Shown: positions 11,927 to 32,000 of the stretch, piece by piece
Layout: the number at the start of each line of letters is the position of its first letter
How positions within the stretch are numbered: position 1 is the first letter of the stretch
Assembly (NCBI GenBank): GCA_017428545.1
Contig: JAFRQR010000003.1
Location: forward strand, 17,311 to 49,310
Reading direction: 5' to 3'
DNA from: Clostridiales bacterium
GTDB lineage: Bacteria > Bacillota > Clostridia > Saccharofermentanales > Saccharofermentanaceae
Length of the DNA: 32,000 nt
Translations under genes and position numbers: made by a program
Notes under the pieces: model-generated
What the model saw: only the letters and a program-made list of their open reading frames with translations
What the model was told of the DNA's origin: nothing
Databases searched by the model: none

Positions 11927-11953
11927 ATGTATTCTCTCCTAAAAAATAGTTTT

Positions 11954-13228
11954 TTAAATAATGGTCAGTATTTTATCGATCAGCGAACCCAGTTTATTAT
12001 CCTCAAGATAAATTTTAAAACGAACCAATCTGTCAATTTCTTCACACATCAGTTCAGTTTTCTTTTTATTCAAATATACCTTAAGTCTTCGCTTGCATTT
12101 TACAGGAAGCACAGTGCAAATATATTCAAGTTGTTGCGCGTTATAATCATTTACTTTTCTTTCTTCAAATTGTTCTAACAGAATATCAGTCACGGCCATA
12201 AACAAATCAAATTTTGAAATCCTGGTGTTTTTTTCGCTTATGGCAGAATTTTCCGAGATTATTTGAGTAATAGTTGCAAGGTCGAAAACACTTTTAATCT
12301 TTTCTGATTCTCTAATTTGCAATGCAAAATCTGACTGGAGATTTCCAATTAGTTTTTGCGCAAAAATAGTCGGATACCTTTTGTGAACCAATAAATAATT
12401 TACCAACAAAGATGCTTGGGTCTTATTATCGCACTTATCCAAATGGCTGATAAAAGCATCAACTGACGTACACAGTTTATTTCTAACTTCTTTTTCGCAA
12501 TCATTAGAACACATTCCGCTTTCTATCTGATGCAATTCATCAACATTCCTTGATACTTTTGTTGAAATCATAAAAAGTCCGATATTCTTTAATAAATCAT
12601 TATCGCTTTTTAAAAGAGATATTATTAGCGTGTCAGATGGATCAGTTAAAAAAAGCGGATTTATCATATTTAAGAGCAATATGCGACTTTCATCATTATA
12701 CGCAAGTTTTTCAAATTTCCCCTGATCTATTTTTTGCAGTATTCTTGCTGCCATTATTATAACTAAATAATTTCTATATGAATCATAGAAAAAGAAACGA
12801 TTAAGATATTCATACTTATTCCGGAACCGTTCGTCTCCCCACTTAATCTTAAAGGTAAAGTTATCAGACTTTCCACATAATAATCTTGTTAACCCGCCAT
12901 AAAGGCAATTAGTCAAATTGTATTTTTCAATAGATGACTTTATTTCGTCATCGCAGTCCAGATTTCGGCATAATAAAGACAAGACAATAATTAGAACTGA
13001 CTTGCCTTTTGATTGACCATGAACCAAATCAATATATTGCTTAAGTTCACAGAAAACTGTATTTATGGATTTTCTATGTAAAATCCCATTTATTCTTTTT
13101 TTGACCTTGTTGAACATTGATGGCTCGTTTATATAATCATTTACAGCTATACCTAGATCAAGTATCGTTTTCTGATTTATCATTTTTATATATTCTTGTG
13201 TGCAATAATATTTCCGTCTTCCATCCAA
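11954..13228 (-). CDS. Uncharacterised ~409-424-aa, apparently all-helical protein (operon gene 2)
   Basis: Long ORF in the same orientation and composition as its neighbours. The start is either TTG at 13228 (43-nt overlap with gene 1) or ATG at 13183 (2 nt after the gene 1 stop). No Walker or other catalytic signature was recognised, only a loose R-x5-H string (SRNVDELHQ). Confidence 0.75.
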   Translation of the reverse strand: MDGRRKYYCTQEYIKMINQKTILDLGIAVNDYINEPSMFNKVKKRINGILHRKSINTVFCELKQYIDLVHGQSKGKSVLIIVLSLLCRNLDCDDEIKSSIEKYNLTNCLYGGLTRLLCGKSDNFTFKIKWGDERFRNKYEYLNRFFFYDSYRNYLVIIMAARILQKIDQGKFEKLAYNDESRILLLNMINPLFLTDPSDTLIISLLKSDNDLLKNIGLFMISTKVSRNVDELHQIESGMCSNDCEKEVRNKLCTSVDAFISHLDKCDNKTQASLLVNYLLVHKRYPTIFAQKLIGNLQSDFALQIRESEKIKSVFDLATITQIISENSAISEKNTRISKFDLFMAVTDILLEQFEERKVNDYNAQQLEYICTVLPVKCKRRLKVYLNKKKTELMCEEIDRLVRFKIYLEDNKLGSLIDKILTII

Positions 13229-14559
13229 GATTTGAGATCTTTTAATATTTTTTTAGAAGATGCAGGGCTAAGTTTAGATATACAATAAAAATTTCTATCT
13301 AGAGAATTGAATGATGTTCCAATTGATACCCCACTATAGCCATTTTTGTTATTCTGTAATAAAAATCTATCATGTATGGGGAATTTTGATTGATATAGTC
13401 CAATACCTAATCTCTTTTTTATACGAATAATATTGCCCATTACAGCATCTTCCTTTATTTTTTTAAAAAAGGAATCAGCGTTCAAACTATTGTTGGATCC
13501 ATTACAAAAGAAAACTATACTCTTAAATTTGGCGTTACAATTTGCAATAATCCTCAACCAATCCAAAGAGCAACCTATACCGTCATTATCAGAAAAATAA
13601 GAATCAAATAACCATATTTCGTTGGTAGCAGATTCTATTTCTTTCCACAACAAATTGTTGACTACCGATAACTGATTTGGTTTAATAAAATGAACTTGGT
13701 CATCCGGTTGATCTGTTTTGATTTGCCTTCTTATTTCAAATTCGGACTTTCTAATAACGGTGTTATAATCCGAACGTTTTCCAATGTGTGTAATACGTTC
13801 ATTACTTGTTTTTGCAGGAATATACTCTGATGCAATTTTATTAAGTTTTATAGGCTTCAAGTTTTGTTTTATGCCAATTTGAAAATCTAAACTTGTAATA
13901 TAACTTACATCTCTATTGCAGAATACCAAATTGCCGTCTTGAAAAACCTCAATATCATGGCTGTTCCATGTTTTATCACACTCTATTTCTATATCTCTTG
14001 TTTCAGTTTCATTGTTTAAAAGTTGACTAGATACAATTATCCCATTTTCTTTGAATTGAACTACTATTGAAGACTTGGCAGGAACCTTTTCAATTATTAC
14101 GCTCCCTTTCTCGTTAGTCTTCAAACCGAATTCATGAGGTTCAAAAACGAAAGCATCTCCCAATGCCATTGGATTTAAAAGGATATCTATTCCTGTATAT
14201 TCTTTAATAAACTCACTGATTTTGCAAAAATCATCCGATGATATGCTTAAACGATATTCATCATTGTTTATCTCAAATATGCATAACGGCTTTTCAAAAA
14301 AACAGTAACGTGTCATTTTGGCACAAGTGGAATCATTATAAGGATTCATGGTTGACCGCGGTTGCAACAAGCCGGTTTCTATTTGAATCCAACCATCTGA
14401 AACAATTGCATGATCGCAATAGCTTTCTGTAAACACAAGATTAAATCTGCCGACTTTGATTGTTCTTTTTAGTATTCGACCGGTTGCTTTTTTTCTAAAA
14501 CCTTGGTGAAAAATAGTTAATAGAGGTTGCCCTTTAAACAAGATCTTATCGCAAATCAT
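13186..14559 (-). CDS. Uncharacterised 457-aa protein with C-terminal HDR-type PLD-like (MIT_C-like) module (operon gene 1)
   Basis: GGGAG RBS lies just upstream of the ATG at 14559. The C-terminal ~145 aa reads IWLFDSYFSD...SIVFFCNG...PIHDRFLLQNNKNGYSGVSIGTSFNSLD (His codon 13372-13374). This resembles the DxY...IHDR...G..IG.G(L/F)D layout I recall for the PLD-fold C-terminal domain of MITD1. The N-terminal ~300 aa appears beta-rich and I cannot assign it. Confidence 0.8.
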   Translation of the reverse strand: MICDKILFKGQPLLTIFHQGFRKKATGRILKRTIKVGRFNLVFTESYCDHAIVSDGWIQIETGLLQPRSTMNPYNDSTCAKMTRYCFFEKPLCIFEINNDEYRLSISSDDFCKISEFIKEYTGIDILLNPMALGDAFVFEPHEFGLKTNEKGSVIIEKVPAKSSIVVQFKENGIIVSSQLLNNETETRDIEIECDKTWNSHDIEVFQDGNLVFCNRDVSYITSLDFQIGIKQNLKPIKLNKIASEYIPAKTSNERITHIGKRSDYNTVIRKSEFEIRRQIKTDQPDDQVHFIKPNQLSVVNNLLWKEIESATNEIWLFDSYFSDNDGIGCSLDWLRIIANCNAKFKSIVFFCNGSNNSLNADSFFKKIKEDAVMGNIIRIKKRLGIGLYQSKFPIHDRFLLQNNKNGYSGVSIGTSFNSLDRNFYCISKLSPASSKKILKDLKSWMEDGNIIAHKNI

Positions 14560-18109: not shown

Positions 18110-19518
18110 TGGCAACCACGTCGCTTTGGAGAGTGAAGGGATATATCGGTAAACTCATTCTTTACGCTTCAAATCCCGATAAGACAAAAAGCCGTCAGTC
18201 GGTCGATACCGGTAATGATGATACCGATCCTGAACAGGCTCTCGGAGACGTGCTGTCTTATGCCGGTCGAAATGAAGCGACCGATAATATGGAATACGTT
18301 TTCGGAATCCACTGCGGAGTGAGATCCGCCAAAGACGATATGATGAAAGTAAAGCGAAGATTCAAACAGCTTGACGGAGTTGTCGCTTATCACGGGTATC
18401 AATCGTTTGCCGAAGGGGAAGTCACTCCGGCCATTGCGTTTGATATCGGAAAAAAACTCGCCGACGAGCTGTGGGGAGATGAATTTCAGGTTCTCGTTAC
18501 AACGCATTTGGATAAGGAATCCCATATTCATAATCACTTTGTAATAAACACGGTGTCGATTAAAGACGGTCACAAATTTCACCGCACGAAGCAAGACTAT
18601 TACAAGATGCGGGAAGTGAGTGACCGTCTCTGCCGTGAGTACGGGTTATCGGTTGTATCAAGACCCGCTGAAAAAGCCAGGCATTACACAGAGTGGAAAG
18701 CCGAGCAGGACGGTCAGCAAACTATACGCGGTGCGATACGCGCCGCCATCGATACGGCCATACGCGGTTCAACCACGAAAGCAGGATTCCTCGAAGCGAT
18801 GGATCAGATGGGATTCGTCATCGACCAAAGCGGAAAATATCCGAAGATAAAACAGGTCGGCAATGAACGTTTCGTCAGGTTCAAATCGCTCGGCGAAGGT
18901 TACAGTGTAGAAGAGATTATCGATCGAATCTACCGTAATGAACGACCGATGTACCCGAGGATACCCGAGCAGGAAGACCCGAGACAAATCTTTGAAGGAG
19001 AGGACGAACCGGTCGCCATAATGACCTTTGTCCCGCTTTTTCGATGTTATCACCGCGCGCTTGACGTCGCGCTTGAAAGACCTAGGACAAACAGGCGAAT
19101 ATATTTCCTCGTCAGGCAGGACACAAGTTCTATGAGACTGTACGTCGATTCTGCAAGACTCGTCACTCAACATAATCTGCACTCAAAAGAAGACGTCCTC
19201 AATTACAAGCGGCACGCGATGGATCAGATCGATCGTTTCATTAAAGAAAGGCAGGATTCGAGAAACGCAATGAAAAGAGCGATGCGGTCCGGCGACTCGG
19301 ATCTGTACAATCAAGCGAAGTACAACATAGGAGTACTGACGCGAAAGCTCTCAAAGCTTCGCCGGGAGGTCACGACCTGCGATGAAGTGATCGAGAGAAG
19401 CGAACACGTCAGGACTAATCTCTCAAGGATAGAACAGGATAAATTCAGGGGAAAGGAGGTGATAAGAGATGAACACGTCAGCAGACGCCGCGGAACAAGT
19501 CGTGAGAATGAGTCTTAA
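18109..19518 (+). CDS. Relaxase/mobilisation nuclease (MobA/VirD2-type)
   Basis: It has the histidine-triad region VTTHLDKESHIHNHFVINTVS and an N-terminal relaxase-domain layout. It lies directly after mobC. Confidence 0.9.
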   Translation: MATTSLWRVKGYIGKLILYASNPDKTKSRQSVDTGNDDTDPEQALGDVLSYAGRNEATDNMEYVFGIHCGVRSAKDDMMKVKRRFKQLDGVVAYHGYQSFAEGEVTPAIAFDIGKKLADELWGDEFQVLVTTHLDKESHIHNHFVINTVSIKDGHKFHRTKQDYYKMREVSDRLCREYGLSVVSRPAEKARHYTEWKAEQDGQQTIRGAIRAAIDTAIRGSTTKAGFLEAMDQMGFVIDQSGKYPKIKQVGNERFVRFKSLGEGYSVEEIIDRIYRNERPMYPRIPEQEDPRQIFEGEDEPVAIMTFVPLFRCYHRALDVALERPRTNRRIYFLVRQDTSSMRLYVDSARLVTQHNLHSKEDVLNYKRHAMDQIDRFIKERQDSRNAMKRAMRSGDSDLYNQAKYNIGVLTRKLSKLRREVTTCDEVIERSEHVRTNLSRIEQDKFRGKEVIRDEHVSRRRGTSRENES

Positions 19519-20263
19519 CGGAGCGGAAGTCGCTTTGAGAGTTACCGGCAAAGGAGCGGAAAAAGCGGCGATCCTCATTTACCGCGCACTCAAAAGTGCG
19601 AAGAATGAATCCACTAAGACAAAAGGCGCGATCAGACTTGCCAATCTCGCACGTTCAGGTAAAAAACTCGACGTCACGGAGATTATGGACGTCGATCTCA
19701 AGAAGTTCTGTACCGAGGCGAAGAAGTACGGGATCCTCTATACTGTTCTGAAAGACCGGAACAGAACGGACGGGTTGACGGAGATAATGTACAAGACTGA
19801 AGACAAGGAAAAACTCGGCATCATTTTCGACAAACTGAATATGGCAACATATGACACGGCTGAGGTCAAAAATGAGATCGCGCCTGATCTCGAGGAGAAG
19901 AGTCCGCCCGAGAAGACCGGTCCGGAGGTCAGCGACCCGGACAATTTTATCGAAGAACTTATGAAGAAGCCCGAAAAGAATCCCACGAAGGAGGAAGGAC
20001 AGACGAAAAACCCTACGGAGGCTCGGATAGCGAAGCGCGCTCAATCCGAGCCAGAATCAAAAAGCAAAAGAGCTCCGCAAAGCAGAGATTCTTCTGACCG
20101 TGAACGGAAACCGGGCGAGAGAAGATCTGTCCGGAAGGAACTGAACGAGATCCGCAAAGAGCAGGAAGGGCGGAGAGATTCACAGAGACGTTCGCCGAGA
20201 TCTCAAACGAAGATGAACGAACATAAAGCTCCGCCAAAAAAGAAGAAAGTAAAGGAGAGATAA
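19469..20263 (+). CDS. PcfB-family (DUF3801) protein with K/E/R/S-rich disordered tail
   Basis: AEQVVRMSLNGAEVALRVTGKGAEKAAILIYRAL ... LDVTEIMDVDLKKFCTEAKKYGILYTVLKD matches PcfB. AAGGAGG RBS is present. The gene overlaps the relaxase 3' end by 50 nt. Confidence 0.8.
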   Translation: MNTSADAAEQVVRMSLNGAEVALRVTGKGAEKAAILIYRALKSAKNESTKTKGAIRLANLARSGKKLDVTEIMDVDLKKFCTEAKKYGILYTVLKDRNRTDGLTEIMYKTEDKEKLGIIFDKLNMATYDTAEVKNEIAPDLEEKSPPEKTGPEVSDPDNFIEELMKKPEKNPTKEEGQTKNPTEARIAKRAQSEPESKSKRAPQSRDSSDRERKPGERRSVRKELNEIRKEQEGRRDSQRRSPRSQTKMNEHKAPPKKKKVKER

Positions 20264-20267
20264 TAGG

Positions 20268-21164
20268 ATGAACAAATACGACGATCTGTTTGAAAAAATC
20301 GACAGCAAAACAGAAGAAAAAAAGGAACGTCCTGCCGAGAAAAAGGATTGGGCGGAAAAGAAAAGACTCGAGCGCGCGGAAGCGTATATGCTTCTTGATA
20401 AAGCGTCGGAAGAGATAGCAAAGGACCCTGAGAAGTTCAGAGATTATCTGAATACTCAGGCTCAGTTTGACCGATATTCGGCGGGAAACGCTCTGCTTAT
20501 CGCATTCCAGCGCCCCGGGGCGACAAAGGTTGCGGACTTTTCATCGTGGAAGGAAGAAGACGTTTCAATAAACAAAGGAGAGAAGGCGATCACGATCCTC
20601 GAGCCGGGGAACGAATATACCCGTGACGACGGAACGACCGCTTTCAGCGTCAACGTCAAGAAAGTTTTCGATATTTCACAGACCTCAAGCGCCGAGATAA
20701 ATATGCGTCACAGAAAACCCGACGAAAGAGCAGCGATAAAAGCCCTTATTGCGACTTCTCCCTGCGAGGTCGTTCTTGTCGACGAGTTGAAGACGTCTAA
20801 CGCGCGTTATTCGGTCGACAAGAACAAGATATTTATCGTGAAGGGACTGGAAAGCGACGAGATCTTCCGCTCTCTTGCTTTTGAGATCGGGATAGCCAAG
20901 CTCGCGGCTGAAGACGTGAGCAGGAAGGACGGTATGTTTACCGCGTACTGCGCCTCATATATCCTCTGTGAGCGAAACGGCTTTGACACCGGAAGCTTCA
21001 ACTTCGATAAGGTTCCCGAGCGTTATGCGGATAAGGATACAAAGGAGATTCGCAAAGAACTCGGTTCCATACGCGACATGGCGAATGACCTCACTCAGGA
21101 AATGAACCGTCAGTTTGAGGCGATAGACAAGAACAAACGCACAAGAGACGACGAAGCAAGATAA
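20268..21164 (+). CDS. ArdC-like ssDNA-binding (DUF1738-like) protein
   Basis: YLNTQAQFDRYSAGNALLIAFQRPGATKVADFSSWKEEDVSINKGEKAITILEP resembles the ArdC N-terminal domain (YS..N.lLI..Q.p.AT.va.f..W...gr.V.KGEK.I.il.P). Confidence 0.6.
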   Translation: MNKYDDLFEKIDSKTEEKKERPAEKKDWAEKKRLERAEAYMLLDKASEEIAKDPEKFRDYLNTQAQFDRYSAGNALLIAFQRPGATKVADFSSWKEEDVSINKGEKAITILEPGNEYTRDDGTTAFSVNVKKVFDISQTSSAEINMRHRKPDERAAIKALIATSPCEVVLVDELKTSNARYSVDKNKIFIVKGLESDEIFRSLAFEIGIAKLAAEDVSRKDGMFTAYCASYILCERNGFDTGSFNFDKVPERYADKDTKEIRKELGSIRDMANDLTQEMNRQFEAIDKNKRTRDDEAR

Positions 21165-21175
21165 GGAGGCGTCCT

Positions 21176-21367
21176 ATGCCTGAAATACGAAGAGTCATCG
21201 AAGTGACAGACTTTGAACATCGCCTTATGGTCAACTGTATGCGGACTGCCCGGAACGAGTATATCGACGAGGGCGCTCCGACTGAAGACGTCAGCAGACT
21301 GATGGTTAAGGTTATGGAAGCCCCGACCAAAAAGGAGAAGCGGAAAGCCGACCGTGAGGCAAGATAA
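21176..21367 (+). CDS. Small hypothetical protein (63 aa) upstream of the coupling protein
   Basis: AAGGAGG RBS, co-oriented with its neighbours, and overlaps the next gene by 14 nt. I cannot assign a family confidently. Confidence 0.55.
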   Translation: MPEIRRVIEVTDFEHRLMVNCMRTARNEYIDEGAPTEDVSRLMVKVMEAPTKKEKRKADREAR

Positions 21368-23267
21368 GTTTTCAAGGTCAAGCATCCTTCTGTACTGTCT
21401 CGGAGTGATACCCGTCATATGGCTCGCTCTTCTCACAGCGCCTGCGCTCGGCGGCGGTCTTCCGAATCTTCTAAAAAATCTGTCCGAAGTTTTTAAGAAT
21501 CCGTTTCACGTCGAATGGTGCGGAGACAGCCTGAAAACTGTCCTTGTATTCATTTTTGCTTATGCTATGGGGATAGGGATATATCTCGCGACGGCAAGGA
21601 ATTACAGACGCAGAGAAGAACACGGCTCTGCGCGTTGGGGCAGCGCTAAAGCCGTAAACAGGAAATACAGAAATTCGGATGCTGAAAAGAACAAACTCCT
21701 GACGCAGCAGACATCTATAGGGCTTGACGGAAGGAAGCACAGACGCAATCTTAACGTACTCGTGTGCGGCGGTTCCGGCGCGGGTAAAACGAGGTTTTAC
21801 GCCAAGCCGAACATAATGCAGGCTAACACGTCTTTTGTCGTCCTCGATCCGAAAGGCGAGATACTGCGTGATACCGGTAATCTTCTTAAAGAGAAAGGAT
21901 ACGAGATCAGAGTACTCGATCTCATCAATATGGATAAGAGCAACTGTTACAATCCTTTCGTTTATCTCCACGAAGATAACGACATTCAGAAACTTGTCAC
22001 AAACATTTTCAAGAACACGACGCCAAAGGGGAGTCAGTCGCAAGACCCGTTCTGGGATCAGGCGGCGATGATGTTGCTTCTCGCTCTTGTGTTCTATCTT
22101 CATTACGAGGCTCCTCCGGAAGAGCAGAACTTCCCGATGGTGATGGAGATGATAAGAGCCGGAGAGGTACACGAAGACAACGAGTATTTTCAGTCTCCGC
22201 TCGACATTCTGTTTGACAAGCTTGAAGAAAGAGCGCCTGACCATATCGCTCTGAAGTATTACCGAAATTACAGATCCGGTTCGGGGAAAACGCTGAAGTC
22301 GATTCAGATCACACTTGTATCCCGCCTTGAGAAGTTCAATCTCGACAGTCTGGCGTCGATAACGCAGACTGACGACATGAAGCTCGGAGAACTCGGTGAG
22401 AAGAAAACGGCGGTCTTTGCCATTATTCCGGCAAACGACAGTTCCTTCAACTTCATTGTCGGTATGCTTTACACTCAGCTCTTTCAACAACTTTACTTCA
22501 AAGCGGATAACGAATACGGCGGTAGGCTTCCGGTCCACGTCCACTTCGTAATGGACGAGTTTGCAAATGTCGCGCTTCCGGACGAATTTGAGAAGTTACT
22601 CTCCACAATGAGAAGCTATGAGATCTCCGTGAGCATCATCATTCAGAATATGGCTCAGCTCAAATCCCTCTTTGAGAAACAGTGGGAAAGTATCGTCGGT
22701 AACTGCGACGAGTTCCTTTACCTCGGCGGCAACGAGCAGTCAACGCACGAGTACGTTTCCAAACTGCTCGGTAAGGAAACCATCGATATGAACACATACG
22801 GACAGTCGAGGGGACGGAACGGAAACTATTCGACCAACTGGCAGATCACAGGCCGGGAACTGATGACGCCTGACGAAGTGCGTATGCTCGATAACAGGTA
22901 CGCGCTTCTGTTCATCCGGGGAGAACGTCCGGTTATGGATCTGAAATACGACATTATGAGCCATCCGAACGTTGAACTGACAGCAGACGGGAAAGCCAAA
23001 CCGTACGTTCACGGAAAAAGAAAGTACAACTACGCTTCAATCCAACTTGACAGAGATCTTATCGACCCCGAAGCCAAAGAAACTGAATTTGAGGACGACA
23101 ATAGCGACTACGTGATTCTGACAGAAGAGGACATTGATAACATACTCTATCCAAAACAAGAAAACGAAATAGAAGAAACGGAGGATTTATTCTATGAAGA
23201 TGATCAGAACTTCAACGCATCTCAAAAGACAAGAAGACACGTCCCGCCTCATTCGGGGAAAAAGTAA
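21354..23267 (+). CDS. Type IV coupling protein (VirD4/TraG family, CD1115-like)
   Basis: N-terminal TM segments, Walker A VLVCGGSGAGKTRF, Walker B HFVMDEFAN, and conserved IIQNMAQLK and RYALLFIRGERP strings. Confidence 0.9.
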   Translation: MRQDKFSRSSILLYCLGVIPVIWLALLTAPALGGGLPNLLKNLSEVFKNPFHVEWCGDSLKTVLVFIFAYAMGIGIYLATARNYRRREEHGSARWGSAKAVNRKYRNSDAEKNKLLTQQTSIGLDGRKHRRNLNVLVCGGSGAGKTRFYAKPNIMQANTSFVVLDPKGEILRDTGNLLKEKGYEIRVLDLINMDKSNCYNPFVYLHEDNDIQKLVTNIFKNTTPKGSQSQDPFWDQAAMMLLLALVFYLHYEAPPEEQNFPMVMEMIRAGEVHEDNEYFQSPLDILFDKLEERAPDHIALKYYRNYRSGSGKTLKSIQITLVSRLEKFNLDSLASITQTDDMKLGELGEKKTAVFAIIPANDSSFNFIVGMLYTQLFQQLYFKADNEYGGRLPVHVHFVMDEFANVALPDEFEKLLSTMRSYEISVSIIIQNMAQLKSLFEKQWESIVGNCDEFLYLGGNEQSTHEYVSKLLGKETIDMNTYGQSRGRNGNYSTNWQITGRELMTPDEVRMLDNRYALLFIRGERPVMDLKYDIMSHPNVELTADGKAKPYVHGKRKYNYASIQLDRDLIDPEAKETEFEDDNSDYVILTEEDIDNILYPKQENEIEETEDLFYEDDQNFNASQKTRRHVPPHSGKK

Positions 23268-23565
23268 GAAGGCGCTTTCCGTGATACTTTCCGTTGTGAT
23301 AGCAGTAACGCTTATGTGCGTTATGGCTCTCGCGGTGTTTGCCGACGGCAACGGAGACCCGCTTGCAGTTGTGAATAACCTTTCAAGTTTCATTTTCGGA
23401 CTCATCCGCGCGATCGGCCTTATCCTTCTCGGGTTCGGCATCGTACAGGTAGGACTGTCCCTCAAATCGCACGACCCGTCACAGAGGGCAAACGGATTCC
23501 TTACTGTTGCAGGAGGCGTCATTATCACATTCGCAAAAGAGATCCTTTCCCTTATTACGGGATGA
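23194..23565 (+). CDS. Maff2-family small membrane protein
   Basis: DPLAVVNNLSSFIFGLIRAIGLILLGFGIVQVGLSLKSHDPSQRANGFLTVAGGVII is the typical Maff2 pattern. GGAGGA RBS lies before the ATG at 23194. The gene overlaps the coupling-protein gene by 74 nt. Confidence 0.8.
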   Translation: MKMIRTSTHLKRQEDTSRLIRGKSKKALSVILSVVIAVTLMCVMALAVFADGNGDPLAVVNNLSSFIFGLIRAIGLILLGFGIVQVGLSLKSHDPSQRANGFLTVAGGVIITFAKEILSLITG

Positions 23566-23635
23566 CGTCCGCAAATGCGGAGTACCGTGTGACGGCGCGG
23601 TACTCCGCATATTCTGACGAAGGGAGGAATTCAAT

Positions 23636-24469
23636 GTGTCAGATAACTGGGTAGTCAATAATCTGAACTATGCGCTTGAGACCTGGAATTCAAAGTATGC
23701 GGAGATTTGGTCTCTGCTGACCAAATCACCTGCTGAGTTCAAGGGCGGAATGATATGGAGCGTCATTGTCAACATTCACGGAACGCTTCAGGCGGTCGGA
23801 TACGCTCTGCTTGTCCTGTTTTTCGTGATCGGAGTCGTGAAGACCTGCGGCTCTTTCACGGACTTGAAAAAGCCGGAACATGCCTTGAAACTGTTTATCC
23901 GTTTTGCAATAGCAAAGGGCGTCATAACATACGGCTTGGAACTTCTTCTGAAACTCATTGAAATCGCTCAGGGTATCCTGTCAAAGATTATGGGCTCCTC
24001 CGGGGTTTACGGAGCCGCGGCTGTGCGGCCTCAATCGATCGTTGACGCAATCGAAAGATGCGGCTTTTGGGAATCGATACCCCTGTGGGCGGTCACTCTT
24101 ATCGGCGGTCTGTTCGTAACGATCTTGTCATTCATTATGATAATGACGGTCTACGGACGGTTTTTCAAAATATATATGTACGCTGCAATAGCACCTATCC
24201 CGCTTTCAACCTTTGCCGGAGAACCGACTCAGAACGTGGGAAAAACTTTTCTCAAGAGTTTCTGCGCTGTCTTGCTTGAAGGCGCAATAATCCTACTCGC
24301 GTGTATCATTTTCTCTGTGTTCGCTTCTTCTCCTCCGATGGTAGACGCATCCGCGCCGGCTGTAAATCAGGTTTGGGCTTACCTCGGAGAATTGACCTTC
24401 AATATGCTCGTCCTTGTCGGAAGCGTCAAAATGGCGGACCGGATCGTGCGGGAAATGATGGGACTTTAA
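23636..24469 (+). CDS. VirB6/TrbL-like polytopic membrane protein (CD0415/CD1112-like)
   Basis: Multiple hydrophobic segments, and a position between Maff2 and the VirB3/VirB4 genes as in related Clostridia ICEs. GTG start is preceded by GGGAGGA. Confidence 0.75.
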   Translation: MSDNWVVNNLNYALETWNSKYAEIWSLLTKSPAEFKGGMIWSVIVNIHGTLQAVGYALLVLFFVIGVVKTCGSFTDLKKPEHALKLFIRFAIAKGVITYGLELLLKLIEIAQGILSKIMGSSGVYGAAAVRPQSIVDAIERCGFWESIPLWAVTLIGGLFVTILSFIMIMTVYGRFFKIYMYAAIAPIPLSTFAGEPTQNVGKTFLKSFCAVLLEGAIILLACIIFSVFASSPPMVDASAPAVNQVWAYLGELTFNMLVLVGSVKMADRIVREMMGL

Positions 24470-24542
24470 GCGCGCTGTTTATGTCACAATAAGAGGTGGA
24501 TTATACGCAATAATGTTACCTCAGTAAAAATTGCAATGAAAT

Positions 24543-24593
24543 AATCAAATAATTTGATTTTTTAGTTGTAATTTTACGAGAATGTGATATAAT
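24543..24593 (+). promoter_or_regulatory. Palindromic operator candidate plus promoter of the ATPase/RloB cassette
   Basis: A 17-bp palindrome AATCAAAT-A-ATTTGATT (24543-24559) is followed by TTGTAA (24566-24571), a 16-nt spacer ending in TGA (extended -10), and TATAAT (24588-24593). AAAGGAGG RBS at 24609-24616 precedes the ATG at 24625. Confidence 0.5.
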
Positions 24594-24624
24594 AATATAG
24601 AACAACGAAAAGGAGGCCGCAAAT

Positions 24625-25923
24625 ATGCTTGTTGAGTTTAAGTTTAAGAATTACAGATCTTTTCGTGATGAAACGGTTTTGTCAATGGAATCTGTAGGAC
24701 TGTCTTCTTTTAAAAATATCCTGATAGAAGCAGGTTCGTACAAACTGTTGCCCGGAGTCGCTATTTACGGAAAGAACGGCGGCGGGAAAAGCAACGTAAT
24801 CAGAGCATTTTGGTTAGCGGTTCAGTTTATCAGAAACGCGCAAAGAACACAGCATGAAAAATCAGAGATCCCTGTTCGCCCTTTTGAACTGAACGATTAC
24901 TCCCGTGACGAGCCGACCGAGTTTGAATTCACATACTATCTTGACAGCATCAGGTATATTTACGGATTCTCTGCGACAAGAGAGAAGATAATCAAAGAAT
25001 ATCTGTATCATTCTCCCAAGGGAGAGAAAGCGCTGGTATTCTCCAGAGAAGAACAGTCATTCACTTTTACAAAAGACAAGCCCAAAAGAAAAATGATAAG
25101 TGAAATGGTTGCTCAGAATCAGCTGTTCTTTTCCGTCGCCTGCACAATGAATGACGCCGCGTGTGTCAACGCAATGAAGTGGTTCAGAGATTGCCTCTTC
25201 TTTTCCAGAGATTATTCGGATATTCCGAGTCAACTTTTGGAATACAGCGAAGACGAAGAGATGCTCAAAGCGATTTCCGAATATGCAAAGTCGGCTGATA
25301 TCGGAATCGAGGAAATGAGTTTCAAGTTCAATAACGTCGAGTTGGGCAAGGATTTATCTTTCCCTGAAAATATGCCTGAAGGAATAAAGGTCGCACTGAC
25401 ACAATTTGTCAAATCGTTGTCCGAAGTGTCTCAAACAACCGACGTTAATTTGAAAATGGGAGAAGTTACTGCAACGTCCTCACATAAAGGCGTGGATAAG
25501 AGCGGAGCGAAGAAAAGTTATCCTCTTGATCTTTCGGATGAATCTGACGGAACAAGAAAACTTATGGCGTTAGCTCCTGCTGTTGAGTCTGCGCTTCGTA
25601 CAGGCGGCGTTTTGTTTGTCGATGAACTGGACCGTTCTCTTCATCCCGTATTAATAAACTACGTAGTCTCAAAGTTTCAGAGTAAGAAGACGAATACGAA
25701 AGGCGCGCAGCTGATATTCACAACACATGGAACGGAACTGCTCAGTCTGGAAAGAATCCGTAAAGACCAGATTTACTTTGTGAATAAGCGGAACGAAGAC
25801 GGAGTTTCCGAGTTATACAGCATCGATGAGTTTATGACGAGGACGACGGATAATATCCGCAAGGGATATCTTGCCGGAAAGTACGGAGCCATTCCTGACG
25901 TTGAAATCGAGGAGGTAGAATAA
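24625..25923 (+). CDS. ABC-type AAA_21/AAA_15-like ATPase (abortive-infection-type)
   Basis: N-terminus MLVEFKFKNYRSFRDETVL, Walker A GKNGGGKSN, signature-like SDGTRKLM, Walker B LFVDELDRSLHP, and H-loop FTTHG. Confidence 0.85.
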   Translation: MLVEFKFKNYRSFRDETVLSMESVGLSSFKNILIEAGSYKLLPGVAIYGKNGGGKSNVIRAFWLAVQFIRNAQRTQHEKSEIPVRPFELNDYSRDEPTEFEFTYYLDSIRYIYGFSATREKIIKEYLYHSPKGEKALVFSREEQSFTFTKDKPKRKMISEMVAQNQLFFSVACTMNDAACVNAMKWFRDCLFFSRDYSDIPSQLLEYSEDEEMLKAISEYAKSADIGIEEMSFKFNNVELGKDLSFPENMPEGIKVALTQFVKSLSEVSQTTDVNLKMGEVTATSSHKGVDKSGAKKSYPLDLSDESDGTRKLMALAPAVESALRTGGVLFVDELDRSLHPVLINYVVSKFQSKKTNTKGAQLIFTTHGTELLSLERIRKDQIYFVNKRNEDGVSELYSIDEFMTRTTDNIRKGYLAGKYGAIPDVEIEEVE

Positions 25924-26579
25924 TGCCTCGCAGATTCAAGAAAACAAAACCGCTCGTATACGTGTTTTATGAGGGAGAAAGCGAACAGAAATATATCGAC
26001 TTTCTGAAGAAAACATTTTCAGACGTTGCGGTAATAAAAAGGCCGGCATCTACCGGACTGTTTGAAGCGGCTGAAAGCAAATTCAAAAGTGACCCTCAAT
26101 ACAAAAACTATGCTGAGATAACAGACGAGATATGGTTTTTCTTTGACGTGGAAACTGAAGATATCCCCAAATGGGAAGACAGATTATCTGCGATAAAAAG
26201 ATTGAGAAAGCTGAGAAAAGATCCTCAGATAAAGGTTCGTCTTTTGATGACAACCGGGTGCGTTGAGTATTGGCTGATGCTTCATTATGAGTATTGTGCG
26301 CCTCGGCTGAACACCGTTGCCGAGAAGGATCGGATGGAAAACAGATTGAAGACAAAAGAGCCTTCTTACCAAAAAGGTGACAAAGATTCGATCTTTAAAA
26401 TCGCGGGAAAATATGAAACCGCGATCAAAAACGGGGCCAAGTCATTGTCAAGACTCATTCAGGACGGGTTGCCATCAATTGAGGAAACCGACGAAAGAAA
26501 TCAATGGCTTGTAAAGAACTGCTTGACCTTTACAACCGTCCAACAGGCAATTGATTTTTTGGTGAGTTTGGGAGAATAA
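25923..26579 (+). CDS. RloB-like (Toprim-related) protein
   Basis: VYVFYEGESEQKYIDFL matches the RloB N-terminal motif (..EGe.tE..Yf), followed by an acidic FFFDVETED block. The TAATG 1-nt overlap with the ATPase gene indicates translational coupling. Confidence 0.75.
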   Translation: MPRRFKKTKPLVYVFYEGESEQKYIDFLKKTFSDVAVIKRPASTGLFEAAESKFKSDPQYKNYAEITDEIWFFFDVETEDIPKWEDRLSAIKRLRKLRKDPQIKVRLLMTTGCVEYWLMLHYEYCAPRLNTVAEKDRMENRLKTKEPSYQKGDKDSIFKIAGKYETAIKNGAKSLSRLIQDGLPSIEETDERNQWLVKNCLTFTTVQQAIDFLVSLGE

Positions 26580-26631
26580 CCATCCAAGGACACTTTCATA
26601 ATGTTTTCAACTGCAAACACATAATTCAAAC

Positions 26632-26664
26632 AAATCGCCGTCTGCCCGGACGGCGATTTTTTCT
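26632..26664 (+). terminator. Rho-independent terminator of the ATPase/RloB cassette
   Basis: An 11-bp perfect stem AAATCGCCGTC (26632-26642) / GACGGCGATTT (26649-26659) with loop TGCCCG, running into a T-tract. Confidence 0.75.
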
Positions 26665-26681
26665 GAAAGGAGAACTACTTG

Positions 26682-27032
26682 ATGGAGATTAAGGTTAACA
26701 AAGAAATCCGCAATTATACGGAATCAATGTTTTTCGGGCTGTCGATGAGACAGTTCTTTTTTGCGCTGATTGGTGTAGGAGCAGCAATCCTAATGTACTT
26801 TCTGCTTCGCACTCATCTCGGAACCGAAACGCTGTCGTGGGTATGTATGCTCGGAGCGGCTCCGTTCGTTGCAATGGGTTTTATCACATATAACGGGATG
26901 ACAGCGGAACAGTTCGCGTGGACGTGGATCAAAAGCAAGTTCATCGAGCCGAAAAAGGTGAAGTTTGAGTGCGATACCTTCTACCACGAAACGGTTCAGA
27001 GATCTGCGAGAAAGGAGAATAAAAGACTATGA
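26682..27032 (+). CDS. PrgI-family / VirB3-like T4SS membrane protein
   Basis: IKVNKEIRNYTESMFFGLSMRQFFFALIGVGAAILMYF is the typical PrgI pattern. ATG at 26682 follows AAAGGAGA. An ATGA overlap links it to the VirB4 gene. Confidence 0.8.
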   Translation: MEIKVNKEIRNYTESMFFGLSMRQFFFALIGVGAAILMYFLLRTHLGTETLSWVCMLGAAPFVAMGFITYNGMTAEQFAWTWIKSKFIEPKKVKFECDTFYHETVQRSARKENKRL

Positions 27033-29374
27033 TGAAATCGCTCAAAAGTATGCTTATGTCAGATAAGGAAGCGTACAAAGTCCCGAGATCCGTTCACGAC
27101 TATATACCCATAACCGGGATCTTCGATGATGGCATCTTCAAAGTCGGCAACCGCTATACAAAGACGTTCAAGTTTGAAGATATCAATTATCTCGTGGCGA
27201 GTCGAGAAGACAAGGAAACGATGTTCCTCGCCTACTCGGAATTGCTCAACAGTCTTGACAGCGGGGCTACGACAAAGATTACGATCAACAACAGAAAACT
27301 CAATCGGAACGACTTTGAGAAAAACATCCTTATGCCTGAACTCGGAGACTCGCTGGACGTCTATCGAAAAGAGTATAACGATATGCTCCGGGACAAATCC
27401 TCGGAAGCAAACGGGATCGTTCAGGAAAAATATATCACTGTATCCGTTGCCAAAAAAGACGTTGAGGACGCGAGAACCTACTTTTCGCGGATAGGATCCG
27501 ATCTGAACACTCACTTAACCGCGCTCGGATCAAAATGCGCGGAACTTGACGCTACTGAAAGGCTGAGGATACTCCACGATTTTTACCGTCCCGGGCAAGA
27601 AGTTTTCTTTCACTTCAATATGAACGAGATGGCGAGAAGCGGACACAATTTCAAGGATTATATCTGTCCAGACAGTATTGAGCGTTTCGATGATTACGTG
27701 AAACTCGGCGACAAGTTTGTCCGGGTTCTTTTTATCAAAGACCTCGCGGCGTATATAAAGGACAGTATGGTATCGGAACTTACCGAACTCAACCGTAACC
27801 TTATGCTTTCCATTGACGTTATCCCAATCCCGACCGACGAGGCGGTTCGTGAGGTGGAAAACCGTTTGCTCGGGATAGAGACGAACATTACGAACTGGCA
27901 GAGGAAACAGAATCAGAACAACAACTACTCCGCCGCGGTTCCTTATGATATGGAACTCCAAAGAAAAGAGAGCCGTGAATTCCTCGACGACCTGACCACA
28001 CGGGATCAGCGTATGATGTGCGCCACCATAACGCTTGTCCACGAGGCGGATACAAAGGAGCAGCTTGATTCCGACACTGAGGCGCTTCTTTCAACTGCAA
28101 GACGTCACCTTTGTCAGCTTGCCGTACTGAAGTTTCAGCAGATGGACGGGCTCAATACCGTTCTTCCCATAGGGTGCAGAAAGATAAACGTGTTGAGGAC
28201 GCTCACAACCGAGAGCCTTGCGGTCTTTATGCCGTTCAAAGTTCAGGAGATCGGTCACGAGCGCGGGATCTATTACGGCCAGAACGCCATAAGCAACAAC
28301 ATGATAATCGCCAACAGAAGGCATTTGCTCAACGGCAACTCGTTCATACTCGGCGTCTCGGGCTCGGGTAAATCGTTCACGGGTAAGTGCGAGATCTCCA
28401 ATCTGATGCTCGACGGCGATGCAGATATTATTATCATTGACCCGGAGCGTGAATACGCCCCGCTTGTCAAGGCGCTCGGAGGCGAGATCATCGACATTTC
28501 CGCAACGAGCAGGAACCACATCAACGCAATGGATATGAACAGAGAATACGGCGACGGAGAAGATCCCGTTATCCTCAAATCGGAGTTTATTTTGTCGCTT
28601 TGCGAACAGCTCATCGGGAGCCGGAGCCTCGGCGCAAAGGAGAAGTCGCTCATTGACCGATGCACGAAAATAGTGTATCGCAATTACAAGAAGCGAGGGT
28701 ATAAAGGGGCGGTTCCCACTCTGAAGGAGTTCCGCGCGGAGCTTCTCAAGCAGGAGGAACCCGAAGCGCAGGATATCGCGCTTGCCATTGAACTCTTCAC
28801 GGACGGTTCTCTGGACACATTCGCGAAGAAGACGAACGTAGACGTGGACAACCGTCTGATCTGTTATGATATTCTTGATCTCGGAAAGCAGCTTCTTCCT
28901 ATCGGAATGCTCGTCGTACTAGACAGTATCCTCAACCGAATAACTGAGAACAGAGCTAAAGGAAGAAACACGTTCATTTTCATTGATGAGATTTATCTGC
29001 TCTTTCAGCACGAGTATTCCGCAAACTTCCTGTTTACTCTTTGGAAACGTGTAAGGAAGTACGGCGCGTTCTGTACCGGCATCACGCAGAACGTGGACGA
29101 TCTCCTTCAGAGCCATACCGCGAGGACGATGCTCGCCAATTCCGAGTTTATCATCATGCTGAATCAGGCGACGACCGACCGGATCAAACTCGCGGAGCTG
29201 CTGAATATCTCCGACACGCAGTTGTCGTATATAACGAACGTTGAAGCAGGTCGTGGATTGATGAGGGTCGGCTCTGCTCTCGTTCCGTTCGTAAACAAGT
29301 TCCCGAAGAATACAAAGTTGTATCGCCTTATGACTACAAAGATGTCAGATTTGAAAGACAGAGGAGGTGAATAA
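27029..29374 (+). CDS. VirB4-like conjugal transfer ATPase (CD1110-like)
   Basis: 781 aa, with Walker A ILGVSGSGKSF, Walker B IIIIDPEREY and a conserved C-terminal TQNVDDLL region. Confidence 0.92.
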   Translation: MMKSLKSMLMSDKEAYKVPRSVHDYIPITGIFDDGIFKVGNRYTKTFKFEDINYLVASREDKETMFLAYSELLNSLDSGATTKITINNRKLNRNDFEKNILMPELGDSLDVYRKEYNDMLRDKSSEANGIVQEKYITVSVAKKDVEDARTYFSRIGSDLNTHLTALGSKCAELDATERLRILHDFYRPGQEVFFHFNMNEMARSGHNFKDYICPDSIERFDDYVKLGDKFVRVLFIKDLAAYIKDSMVSELTELNRNLMLSIDVIPIPTDEAVREVENRLLGIETNITNWQRKQNQNNNYSAAVPYDMELQRKESREFLDDLTTRDQRMMCATITLVHEADTKEQLDSDTEALLSTARRHLCQLAVLKFQQMDGLNTVLPIGCRKINVLRTLTTESLAVFMPFKVQEIGHERGIYYGQNAISNNMIIANRRHLLNGNSFILGVSGSGKSFTGKCEISNLMLDGDADIIIIDPEREYAPLVKALGGEIIDISATSRNHINAMDMNREYGDGEDPVILKSEFILSLCEQLIGSRSLGAKEKSLIDRCTKIVYRNYKKRGYKGAVPTLKEFRAELLKQEEPEAQDIALAIELFTDGSLDTFAKKTNVDVDNRLICYDILDLGKQLLPIGMLVVLDSILNRITENRAKGRNTFIFIDEIYLLFQHEYSANFLFTLWKRVRKYGAFCTGITQNVDDLLQSHTARTMLANSEFIIMLNQATTDRIKLAELLNISDTQLSYITNVEAGRGLMRVGSALVPFVNKFPKNTKLYRLMTTKMSDLKDRGGE

Positions 29375-29376
29375 GC

Positions 29377-30117
29377 GTGGACGAATTAAGAGAGCACCCG
29401 CAGGTCGCGGAACTTATCGATACTCTCGACAAAAATGATATGCATAAAGAAAAGGCGGAAGTGGAATCTCTTGTTGACTATATCGGGGAGATGGAGAAGA
29501 CTCTTTCTGAAATGCTCAAGGAAATGCAGAATATGAGGAAGGAGATAAGTCTTATCCACAACAGCACGCTGAGATCCAAGTGTCAGAACCTTGTTCAGAA
29601 AACCGAGGGGAAGATCAAACAGATCTTCGCGGTAATCGGAAAGATCAAGGATAACTTCATTCAGGCAGTGGGAAACGCGGTAAGGACCTTCAAAGAGAAA
29701 GGTAAAGAGGCGTTCAAAAAGGCGGTCCGGGCAATGAAGGTGCCGGAAACGTTTGATAATCTTTCTGGTCTGTTCGGTAAGTTTTCGAAGGACATAGAAC
29801 AGGACGTGGCGCAGATCGATTCCATGCAAACCGAATTGACCGGCGCGAAGAACCACCTTAAAAACGTCGGTCGCCTTCTCGTCGGCAAACCCGCAAAAGA
29901 GGCGGAACAAGAGAAATCGGACAAGGGAATCCTGTCACGTCTTGGCAAAGTTTTCGGAAAGATCGGGCGCGGCTTTGAAACTCTTTCTCAAAAAGCAATG
30001 GATAAGGCGGACAAGATCCGAGCCGCGGACGTCAAAGAATCGGTCAGAAATGAACTCGACGCACTCAAAGGCATTAAAGGTGCCCCCGGTAAGTCCGATC
30101 CTATCCGTGACAGGTAA
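29377..30117 (+). CDS. Hypothetical coiled-coil protein of the T4SS operon
   Basis: GTG start after GGAGGTG. K/E-rich heptad-like sequence. It is syntenic with unnamed genes between VirB4 and the cell-wall hydrolase in related elements. Confidence 0.65.
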   Translation: MDELREHPQVAELIDTLDKNDMHKEKAEVESLVDYIGEMEKTLSEMLKEMQNMRKEISLIHNSTLRSKCQNLVQKTEGKIKQIFAVIGKIKDNFIQAVGNAVRTFKEKGKEAFKKAVRAMKVPETFDNLSGLFGKFSKDIEQDVAQIDSMQTELTGAKNHLKNVGRLLVGKPAKEAEQEKSDKGILSRLGKVFGKIGRGFETLSQKAMDKADKIRAADVKESVRNELDALKGIKGAPGKSDPIRDR

Positions 30118-30132
30118 CACGGAGGATCTTCA

Positions 30133-31779
30133 ATGAAAGAAATACGGCAAAAGGGATCACAAAAGAACGCCGGGACGACAAATATGAAGTCAGACCTTGC
30201 TTCAAAAATGAGGCAAGGTCTGATCCGTTCTAAAGACACTTCGCGCGAGTTGTCATATGACGACAGATATGAATCCCCGGACGCATACGCGCAGGAGAAA
30301 GTTAAGGATATCTCTGAAAACGCGGCGGGAGATTCGATTCAAGTTGTAAAAGGTACAGCCGGGAAAACGTATGACGGCGGTAAGCGTCTTATTCAGCAGA
30401 TCAAACAGAAAAAGAGGACGGGAGAGGATATAAAGCAGACGGCGAAATCTACCGGAAAAGCGTCTTTCAAAACTGTTGATAAGAACATAAAGTGCGCCGG
30501 TCGGACGGTCGAAAAAGGAACAGGAGCGATAGAACGCTCTGCACGAGTTAAGATAAAGACTGCGGAGAAGGCTGCCGCGGGGACGGTGCAAAAAGCCAAG
30601 AAAGCGAAGAAAGCATCAAGAAACGCCGCAAAGAAGGCAAAGAAAGCAGCCGATAACGCAAGAAAAGCCGCAAAGAAAACCGCCAAAGCAGTCGTATACA
30701 CAGTCAAAGCAATTGTGAAGGGGATAAGAAAACTTGTCGTTTTAATAGCGGCAGGCGGATGGGTCGCGGTTTTGGTAATCATCATTATCGTGATGATCGC
30801 TCTCATCATCGCATCCGGGTTCGGTTTGTTTTATTCCGGAGGCGGAAACAGTTCCGGAGATATCTCAATGACCGACGCCATTTCAGAGATCGACGCCGAA
30901 TACACAGGCAAACTGGACGAGATAAAAACAAACAACGAATTCGATTTGCTTGAGATGAGCGGAAGCCGTGCGGTGTGGCGCGAAGTTTTGACCGTTTATT
31001 CCGTTAAGGTTTCCGGCGATCCGGATAATCCTCAGGAAACGGCGACAATGGATGAAGGCAAGCTTCAGGAACTGAAAGACATTTTCTGGAGTATGAACGA
31101 GATCGACTACCGAACAGAGACTAAAGAAGTAGAAGTCGTCGAGGAGACGGACGACGGAAACGGAAACATTACGGTTGAAACGACGCAAGAAACGAAAACT
31201 GTACTGTATATAACGATCTCTCACAGATCTGCCGAAGAGATGGCGTCTGAATATGGATTTACAGATCTTCAAAGGACACAGCTCAATGAGATGCTGTCTG
31301 ATGAGAACATAGGATTATGGGATCAGTTTCTTCAGGAGGTCAACGCGTCGGACGACGATATAGTATCAATCGCATATTCTCAGATCGGCAATACCGGAGG
31401 AGAAACATACTGGAGTTGGTACGGATTCCCGAGCCGAGTCGAGTGGTGCGCGTGTTTTGTGAGCTGGTGCGCTGACAGATGCGGGTATATTGACTCAGGT
31501 GTCATTCCGAAGTTTGCTGGTTGCCAGATCGCGGTGGACTGGTTTGACGATCGTGGGCAATGGCGTGACAATCGGTATGTTCCGAGGCCCGGCGATATTA
31601 TCTTTTTTGATTGGGAGTTCAACGGCACTACCGGGACAGCGGACCATGTTGGAATTGTGCAGAAGGTTGAGAATAAAACCGTGTATACAGTTGAGGGCAA
31701 CTCAAGCGATTCCGTTGTTCAAAGGGATTATCCGGTTGGGTATGGTGAGATTCTCGGTTACGGAGTACCATTGTATTGA
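30133..31779 (+). CDS. Membrane-anchored CHAP/NlpC-P60-type peptidoglycan hydrolase (VirB1 analogue)
   Basis: K/A-rich low-complexity tract, then TM helix LVVLIAAGGWVAVLVIIIIVMIALIIASGFGLF, then a C-terminal CHAP pattern YWSWYGFPSRVEWCACFVSWC ... PGDIIFFDW ... ADHVGIV ... TVEGNS. Confidence 0.85.
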   Translation: MKEIRQKGSQKNAGTTNMKSDLASKMRQGLIRSKDTSRELSYDDRYESPDAYAQEKVKDISENAAGDSIQVVKGTAGKTYDGGKRLIQQIKQKKRTGEDIKQTAKSTGKASFKTVDKNIKCAGRTVEKGTGAIERSARVKIKTAEKAAAGTVQKAKKAKKASRNAAKKAKKAADNARKAAKKTAKAVVYTVKAIVKGIRKLVVLIAAGGWVAVLVIIIIVMIALIIASGFGLFYSGGGNSSGDISMTDAISEIDAEYTGKLDEIKTNNEFDLLEMSGSRAVWREVLTVYSVKVSGDPDNPQETATMDEGKLQELKDIFWSMNEIDYRTETKEVEVVEETDDGNGNITVETTQETKTVLYITISHRSAEEMASEYGFTDLQRTQLNEMLSDENIGLWDQFLQEVNASDDDIVSIAYSQIGNTGGETYWSWYGFPSRVEWCACFVSWCADRCGYIDSGVIPKFAGCQIAVDWFDDRGQWRDNRYVPRPGDIIFFDWEFNGTTGTADHVGIVQKVENKTVYTVEGNSSDSVVQRDYPVGYGEILGYGVPLY

Positions 31780-31781
31780 AA

Positions 31782-31815
31782 AAAGGGGCTGTCGTATTAA
31801 GGAGACAGCCCCTTT
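31782..31815 (+). terminator. Hairpin terminator after the hydrolase gene
   Basis: A 12-bp stem AAAGGGGCTGTC (31782-31793) / GACAGCCCCTTT (31804-31815) with a 10-nt loop. Only a short T run follows. Confidence 0.55.
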
Positions 31816-31919
31816 AGATGAGGACCTTGACTTATTATCGTTTTCAATATCCTATTTGACCTTACAATAACTATTAATTATTGTAAAAAGAACTGACAAA
31901 GAATAAAGGGTTTTGGTGT

Positions 31920-32000
31920 ATGTTTGATTTTTTTGTTTCCCACTCTTCGATTGATAAAGATACCGTCGTAAACGATCTGGTTTCCATTCTTCAAAATATG
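31920..32000 (+). CDS. 5' end of a TIR-like domain protein (3'-partial, runs off the window)
   Basis: The ATG at 31920 (AAAGGG about 10 nt upstream) opens MFDFFVSHSSIDKDTVVNDLVSILQNM, with no stop up to nt 32000. This resembles the canonical bacterial TIR N-terminus (Y/F)D(V/F)F(I/V)SH(S/A)S.DK..(F/V)...L. Only 27 codons are visible. Confidence 0.4.
   Translation, partial: MFDFFVSHSSIDKDTVVNDLVSILQNM

Follow-up and report, generated by a model that had tools for sequence, protein, structure and literature searches.

We analysed a window of 32,000 nucleotides of Clostridiales bacterium DNA (GenBank assembly GCA_017428545.1, contig JAFRQR010000003.1, positions 17,311 to 49,310 of the forward strand; coordinates below count from its first letter), which carries the conjugation module of an integrative conjugative element (ICE). 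Within the type IV secretion system (T4SS) operon of this element, a two-gene cassette with regulatory sequences of its own separates a VirB6-like gene from a PrgI/VirB3-like gene. The cassette and its flanks comprise the following features:

23636–24469, + strand: gene for a VirB6/TrbL-like T4SS membrane protein, left flank of the slot (its homologue in loci L081/L090 is annotated PF19478 TrbL_2)
24470–24624, + strand: 5' region of the cassette, with the left junction directly 3' of the VirB6 stop codon; GC content 0.30
24543–24559, no strand: perfect 17-bp palindrome AATCAAATAATTTGATT, a putative operator just 5' of the -35 element
24566–24593, + strand: promoter-like site TTGTAA-16 nt-TATAAT with an upstream TG (extended -10), from promoter-site scoring
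24609–24616, + strand: ribosome-binding site (RBS) AAAGGAGG, 8 nt 5' of the abiLi ATG
24625–25923, + strand: abiLi, encoding an ABC-type (AAA_21/AAA_15) ATPase of 432 aa, from PADLOC, Pfam and motifs
25923–26579, + strand: abiLii, encoding an RloB-like (Toprim-related) putative effector of 218 aa, from Pfam RloB and PADLOC; its start overlaps the abiLi stop (TAATG)
26632–26664, + strand: intrinsic terminator with an 11-bp stem AAATCGCCGTC/GACGGCGATTT, a 6-nt loop and a T run, from RNAfold
26670–27032, + strand: PrgI/VirB3-like gene with its RBS, right flank of the slot (Pfam PrgI 1.2e-30)

The two open reading frames (ORFs) are co-oriented and have a single base in common, within the TAATG. 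Upstream of them, the palindrome AATCAAATAATTTGATT forms the core of a longer, 24-nt imperfect inverted repeat (24527–24575). When the region 19000–32000 was scanned, the promoter-like site scored 10 out of 12 and tied for the top; among the three sites with this score it is the only one with the TG extension. The stem arms of the terminator lie at 26632–26642 and 26649–26659, the T run extends to 26664, and RNAfold gives a free energy (dG) of about -19 kcal/mol. A first-pass annotation of this DNA had claimed the palindrome, the extended -10, the RBS, the TAATG coupling and the 11-bp-stem terminator, and all are present in the sequence. It had also recognized the block as an insert, but its limits, 24543–26664, were slightly too narrow; alignment with insert-free relatives gives an insert of 2.2 kb from 24470 to about 26668. 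Homology to these relatives ends at the TAA of the VirB6-like gene (24469) and resumes at AAGGAG (26670), and the insert is placed exactly between the VirB6-like stop codon and the PrgI RBS (AAGGAG, 26670–26675; start at TTG 26679 or ATG 26682). The cassette has a GC content of 0.42–0.43 and a third-codon-position GC (GC3) of 0.47, compared to 0.46–0.50 and 0.52–0.62, respectively, in the neighbouring transfer genes.

Profile searches assign both genes to the AbiL family. The best of 76 PADLOC models for the ATPase is PDLC02335 AbiLi (3.9e-91), and the runner-up AriA (PDLC02980, 1.9e-34) and a further AriA model (1.5e-11) score far below it. Pfam AAA_21 (7.8e-35) and AAA_15 (1.5e-10) both exceed their curated cut-offs, and the Walker A (GKNGGGKS, residues 49–56), Walker B (VLFVDE, 329–334) and H-loop (TTH, 366–368) motifs are intact. 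For the second protein, Pfam gives RloB (5e-17; 63.2 bits, with the cut-off at 31.5), and PDLC02337 AbiLii (1.5e-14) is the only PADLOC match; RloB residues E19, E21, D75, E77 and D80 are invariant in 33 homologues. Scores with the same models are comparable (AbiLi 4.4e-76, AbiLii 4.7e-18) for a pair of lactococcal prophage proteins whose annotation is abortive phage resistance, and BLASTP aligns the window AbiLii with the second of them at an E value of 7e-6, while identity to lactococcal AbiL representatives is only about 24–28%. As in the PADLOC/DefenseFinder definition of AbiL, an AbiLi-profile gene and an AbiLii/RloB gene are adjacent and co-oriented, here with one promoter and one terminator. 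The AAA_21/15 ABC ATPase and RloB assignments, on which the first-pass annotation had made its AbiL pairing depend, are therefore both backed by Pfam, and the pairing itself by the best PADLOC models.

AbiL of Lactococcus lactis (abiLi/abiLii) was reportedly described by Deng, Liu and Dunn in 1999. The window cassette resembles it as a mobile-element-borne operon of two translationally coupled genes, ATPase first and RloB-like protein second; it differs in its host, a gut Clostridia ICE rather than a lactococcal plasmid or prophage, in its position within a T4SS operon and in the terminator that closes it. PARIS (AriA + AriB), in which AriB targets tRNA-Lys, is likewise borne on a mobile element and combines an AAA_15/21 ABC ATPase, encoded first, with a small effector of the Toprim class. 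The ATPase tree of Burman et al. includes AbiL as well, and AbiL has been grouped with PARIS as ABC ATPase + TOPRIM systems (PMC11464382). The earlier parallel with PARIS holds for architecture, for which the same work draws it too, but not for membership: the AriB effector is DUF4435 (PF14491), whereas the window effector is RloB (PF13707), with no AriB model in the PADLOC output, and the pair is therefore AbiL and not PARIS. PtuA models match the window ATPase at only about 1e-12 and its only matches in the PDB are distant PtuA chains (8e-6); in Septu and retron PtuAB the partner PtuB is an HNH nuclease, unlike the RloB partner here. The RloA/RloB proteins of Campylobacter jejuni type I restriction-modification loci share the pairing of a Pfam RloB domain with an AAA ATPase, but no hsd genes adjoin the window cassette.

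Comparison with the homologous pair in locus L081 indicates that both genes are maintained. The abiLi and abiLii genes are 84% and 86% identical to the L081 pair, with nonsynonymous differences per site (pN) of about 0.07–0.09 far below synonymous ones (pS, 0.42–0.77), so both are under purifying selection; pN is 0.09 and pS 0.77 for abiLi, and dN/dS is about 0.11 for abiLii. The pS of abiLii (25923–26579 versus L081 7299–7955), at 0.42, is clearly below that of abiLi, VirB6, VirB4 and VirD4 in the same pair of elements (0.66–0.77), which could result from recombination or from extra constraint on abiLii.

The regulatory sequences belong to the cassette as well. The half-sites AATCA and TGATT of the palindrome persist around a variable centre in L081, L084, L086, L090 and L097, representing four other genomic contexts, and the extended -10 motif TGTGATATAAT/ACT is retained in homologous cassettes elsewhere. 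Because they are conserved across contexts, palindrome and extended -10 are more than chance occurrences and travel with the cassette. A slot framework shared through homologous promoter regions of the window, L002 and L006 was considered and rejected, as their alignment reveals only generic AT-rich promoter features.

To place the cassette among related elements, we scanned for VirB4 relatives, with one genome per species, and obtained 80 loci, of which 74 have both flanking genes complete; contiguity of the VirB6 and PrgI genes was judged from these 74 loci in place of Clostridioides difficile CD1110–CD1115. The VirB6-like homologue is 66–84% identical in 72 of the 75 loci carrying it. VirB6 and PrgI lie 13–25 bp apart in 20/74 loci, and the gap is 13–17 bp in L001, L003, L004, L007, L008, L011 and L012, whose VirB4 is 83–91% identical to that of the window. 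Insert-free loci read VirB6-TAA-GGAGG-8 nt-TTG(PrgI). Since the two genes abut in such close relatives, the block is, as had been proposed, an insertion and not a core part of the T4SS. The arrangement is not unique: cassettes of the same AbiL clade occupy the same slot in L081 (VirB4 91% identical to the window's) and in L090/L091 (VirB4 62%), and cargo of various kinds is generally found there.

Alternative occupants are diverse. L002 carries a second AbiL (AbiLi 9e-84; RloB 1.5e-41) with an ATPase only 26% identical to that of the window, and L009 (4838–6537) an AbiLi-like ATPase (PADLOC 1.2e-34) coupled to a 177-aa protein without a Pfam or PADLOC match. PDC-S01 ATPases (e-109 to e-135) are found in L006, L010 and L064, a Fic protein in L005 and a ParE toxin in L027 and L059. 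In many loci the slot holds small ORFs translationally coupled to VirB6, and some loci carry ORFs of no assigned family. Thus the VirB6/PrgI junction is a cargo hotspot, with conserved flanks and alternative, unrelated cargo at the same junction. As a fixed intergenic site of a conserved ICE backbone with alternative cargo, much of which is defence-related, it resembles the SXT/R391 hotspots, among them hotspot 5 with its anti-phage systems (concept in bioRxiv 10.1101/2020.12.16.423150 and PMC10201445). It differs in belonging to a Clostridia VirB6/PrgI/VirB4-type ICE, in lying between a stop codon and the next RBS within one operon, and in that its autonomous inserts are consistently terminator-capped.

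Several further observations concern the slot. In L009, alignment of the 177-aa partner with RloB is retained at the CEG..E and D motifs, and this partner may be a divergent Toprim-like effector. The Fic insert of L005 (6520–6651) and the PDC-S01 insert of L006 (2495–2624) have the same right end of about 110 bp, including the terminator CGTCACCATACACGGTGGCG and GTTCCCTAC repeats; in L005 the GTTCCCTAC repeats flank the promoter too. This shared end suggests replacement of cargo within an existing cassette frame. L013 (6501–6643) has a 142-bp VirB6/PrgI gap that contains a terminator hairpin and no ORF, and may be the scar of a lost cassette. The VirB2/VirB6 junction, empty in the window, is a second variable slot in relatives (L007 5248–5814; L020 5259–5741; L058 3820–5283); several loci have an MT-A70 DNA methyltransferase there, and L058 has an insertion sequence transposase.

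The clade is not confined to conjugation operons. Its cassettes are found outside the slot in L092, between esterase and PEPCK genes at a chromosomal site in L101, and in L097 in a defence island, where ThiF/E2-like, JAB and SUa-2TM genes next to the cassette form a signature of cyclic-nucleotide defence. Its presence at a chromosomal site and in a defence island marks the pair as mobile cargo and not a T4SS component. The L090 cassette, in the T4SS slot, is 88%/84% identical to the chromosomal one of L101 and only 69%/65% identical to that of the window, so no single vertical lineage accounts for what occupies the T4SS slot. Homology between L090 and L101 covers the coding region only, and no terminal repeats that could mark the ends of a mobile unit were seen in this comparison. 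The assembly collection indexes 2787 blocks with the RloB variant of L090/L091, and 22 similar places; relatives at 23–35% identity occur on 176 plasmids and in 10 phage records. Two copies have a truncated RloB: L084 (6001–7443), beside a SpaA adhesin gene, and L086 (6001–7421), in a capsule locus, keep AbiLi, promoter and palindrome, while only 44 N-terminal aa or 42 C-terminal aa of RloB remain. In copies outside the ICE slot, it is the effector gene that decays.

We also compared how the inserts end. Fifteen of the slot inserts examined are promoter-bearing or otherwise not translationally coupled to VirB6 (those of the window, L081, L090, L002, L009, L005, L006, L010, L064, L031, L027, L071, L067, L077 and L013), and 15/15 are closed by a canonical hairpin and T run located 4–34 nt 5' of the PrgI start; this list is based on RNAfold, as a strict terminator scanner under-called the sites. 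The window terminator is near-identical in L081, hairpin sequences differ between cargos, and L005 and L006 share one. Neither the empty sites nor the coupled small-ORF inserts have a terminator at the slot, and the L092 and L097 cassettes, which lie outside it, have none of this kind within 110 nt. Having a terminator at this position goes with the slot, unlike the palindrome and promoter, which go with the cassette. The terminator as an ancestral feature of the slot is ruled out by the cargo-specific hairpin sequences and the lack of any at empty sites. The simplest reading is that capping reflects selection for insulation of the transfer genes from constitutively promoted cargo.

The gap between terminator and PrgI RBS leaves no room for a promoter, and transcription of the induced operon must therefore pass the terminator. 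Read-through or processive antitermination likely carries it past, judging from Gram-positive conjugation operons such as those of pLS20 and Tn916, whose internal terminators are bypassed by processive antitermination (PMC8191782, PMC8955417, PMC11658703). As with conAn of pLS20 and canT of Tn916, a canonical intrinsic terminator in the window lies within a conjugation operon, upstream of essential transfer genes and too close to them for a promoter in between; unlike there, in this family the terminator comes with the cargo and does not belong to the backbone.

Taken together, these data lead us to consider the block probably an abortive-infection (anti-phage) module of two genes that belongs to the AbiL family and rides as autonomous cargo in a recurrent slot between the VirB6-like and PrgI genes of Clostridia ICEs. 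As summarized in PMC13064643 (citing Deng 1999), AbiL is a two-gene lactococcal abortive-infection system that acts after phage transcription; the phage-resistance phenotype of AbiL comes from the lactococcal system only (PMC13064643). As long as the ICE is integrated, with silent transfer genes, the cassette would rely on its own promoter for transcription. By analogy to AriA and AriB of PARIS, AbiLi may act as an ATP-dependent sensor that holds or activates AbiLii, and AbiLii as a Toprim-like nuclease whose release on phage infection would stop growth. The terminator would insulate PrgI, VirB4, DUF6674 and the CHAP hydrolase from the constitutive promoter of the cassette and, on induction of the ICE, would be passed by partial read-through or processive antitermination.

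Some results weigh against this interpretation. In the one published toxicity test AbiLi did not neutralize AbiLii (PMC3985639), a misfit with simple PARIS-like sequestration. The cassette encodes no obvious DNA-binding protein that could bind the palindrome. Rfam and tRNA scans of the window gave 0 matches, so that no known antiterminator RNA or integration-site tRNA was found in it, and no antitermination element was identified there (operon leaders were not compared across elements). The RloB protein matches no Toprim or DUF4435 Pfam family even at E values up to 10, and a sequence search against PDB chains returned nothing meaningful. An AlphaFold model of this protein, built on an alignment of 33 homologues of little diversity (58–96% identity), has a predicted local distance difference test (pLDDT) score of 63.6 and contains a beta-alpha-beta core (residues 12–122), with E19/E21 after strand 1 and D75-x-E77 (+ D80) after strand 3. 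Its best Foldseek match in the PDB is a generic Rossmann-like fold (E 0.02), topoisomerase Toprim domains follow at 0.06–0.17, and none is significant; with a mediocre model and no significant match, the Toprim fold is not confirmed structurally. A superposition of AbiLii on the OLD nuclease 6NJV has been reported (PMC13064643).

It is unlikely, in our estimation, that the pair is mainly a toxin-antitoxin-like addiction module that stabilizes the ICE, with RloB as a toxin kept in check by the ATPase and cells that lose the element being killed. This would fit the presence of the classical toxin ParE (L027/L059) and of the Fic protein (L005) in the same slot, the toxicity of Fusobacterium nucleatum AbiLii when expressed alone in Escherichia coli (PMC3985639), the behaviour of PARIS as a type II toxin-antitoxin system (PMC13064643) and the decay of the effector outside ICEs while the ATPase survives (L084, L086). 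However, AbiLi lacked antitoxicity in that published test (PMC3985639), it was phage resistance that led to the isolation of the founding AbiL, and the clade sits stably at chromosomal sites where there is nothing to stabilize (L101). Addiction and phage-defence roles are not mutually exclusive.

More doubtful is a role directed at other mobile DNA, in which the cassette excludes competing conjugative elements or plasmids, or is triggered by anti-restriction proteins delivered in conjugation. The anti-restriction protein Ocr sets off PARIS (PMC11464382), ArdC-like anti-restriction genes occur in conjugative elements such as that of the window, and the clade recurs in the T4SS operon of ICEs; but it is equally at home outside ICEs, and the element's own ArdC-like protein would risk self-triggering. 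We find it very improbable that the cassette is an inert or decaying passenger without current function: the RloB remnants of L084 and L086 show that degraded copies exist elsewhere, whereas in the window both ORFs are intact with all catalytic motifs, both genes are under strong purifying selection relative to L081, and promoter, palindrome and coupling are conserved. Finally, the notion of accessory conjugation machinery, such as an ATPase-nuclease pair that processes transferred DNA, is close to refuted, for although the pair is embedded in and co-oriented with the T4SS operon and takes the same place in ICE lineages with VirB4 only 62% identical, it is absent from 20/74 relatives, including six of the closest, is replaced by unrelated cargo in others, has its own promoter and terminator, differs in composition from the flanking genes and occurs in non-conjugative contexts.

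Beyond the anti-phage module itself, we tentatively entertain a broader picture, whose parts jointly remain rather speculative. The VirB6/PrgI junction of a large, gut-prevalent family of Clostridia ICEs might be a dedicated expression slot for defence and addiction cargo, in which each autonomous insert must bring or acquire a terminator abutting the PrgI RBS. Transfer expression would then depend on an undescribed processive antitermination or on regulated read-through, and a regulator would control AbiL expression through the conserved AATCA-N7-TGATT palindrome as its operator.

The surrounding module has the gene order Toprim primase, YodL/DUF3846, PcfM, NikA, MobA/VirD2 relaxase, DUF3801, ArdC-like, VirD4 coupling protein, VirB2-like, VirB6-like, cassette, PrgI, VirB4, DUF6674 and CHAP hydrolase. 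The VirB6-like protein of the window itself has no Pfam match, and megablast of window positions 22500–28500 against PLSDB plasmids gave no match. Two neighbouring features named above are located as follows:

20268–21164: ArdC-like anti-restriction gene
27029–29374: VirB4

Within the 5' part of the PrgI coding sequence (FGLSMRQFFF motif), an 8-pair hairpin followed by TTTTTT (26736–26766) is conserved in all aligned relatives; it may be there by coincidence of the coding sequence, or it may act as an intragenic attenuator. Elsewhere in the element, a separate cargo region holds two candidate defence genes, PDC-S01 (AAA_14 + DUF4143; 5401–6795; PADLOC 3.2e-122) and PDC-S50 (Schlafen AlbA_2; 6848–7984; 6.1e-117), the first of which is the family that also occupies the VirB6/PrgI slot in L006, L010 and L064. 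An ORF of 1668 aa (151–5157), in which an Eco57I-like N6-methyltransferase region is fused to an SNF2/ResIII helicase, is similar to the giant methylase-helicases that conjugative elements carry; in L084, a relative of 2430 aa adjoins the orphan AbiLi. On the - strand, three consecutive large ORFs of 541, 424 and 457 aa (10301–14559) have no Pfam or PADLOC match and adjoin a 303-aa ORF with a phage-integrase SAM-like N-terminal domain (9232–10143).

It is already established that ICE hotspots hold defence cargo and that conjugation operons contain terminators, and our findings do not overturn current ideas; the parts that merit experiment are the terminator-capped slot inside a T4SS operon and the question of read-through. 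With its empty, alternatively filled and terminator-capped states, the slot is a natural experiment on how cargo is insulated and tolerated in a tightly regulated transfer operon, and its comparison across elements can also be used to seek antitermination in Clostridia ICEs. Among ABC-ATPase/Toprim defence systems, AbiL has received comparatively little study, and the clade described here is extremely common in human-gut Clostridia. Given this commonness and its carriage on conjugative elements, the clade probably shapes phage-host and element-element dynamics in the gut.

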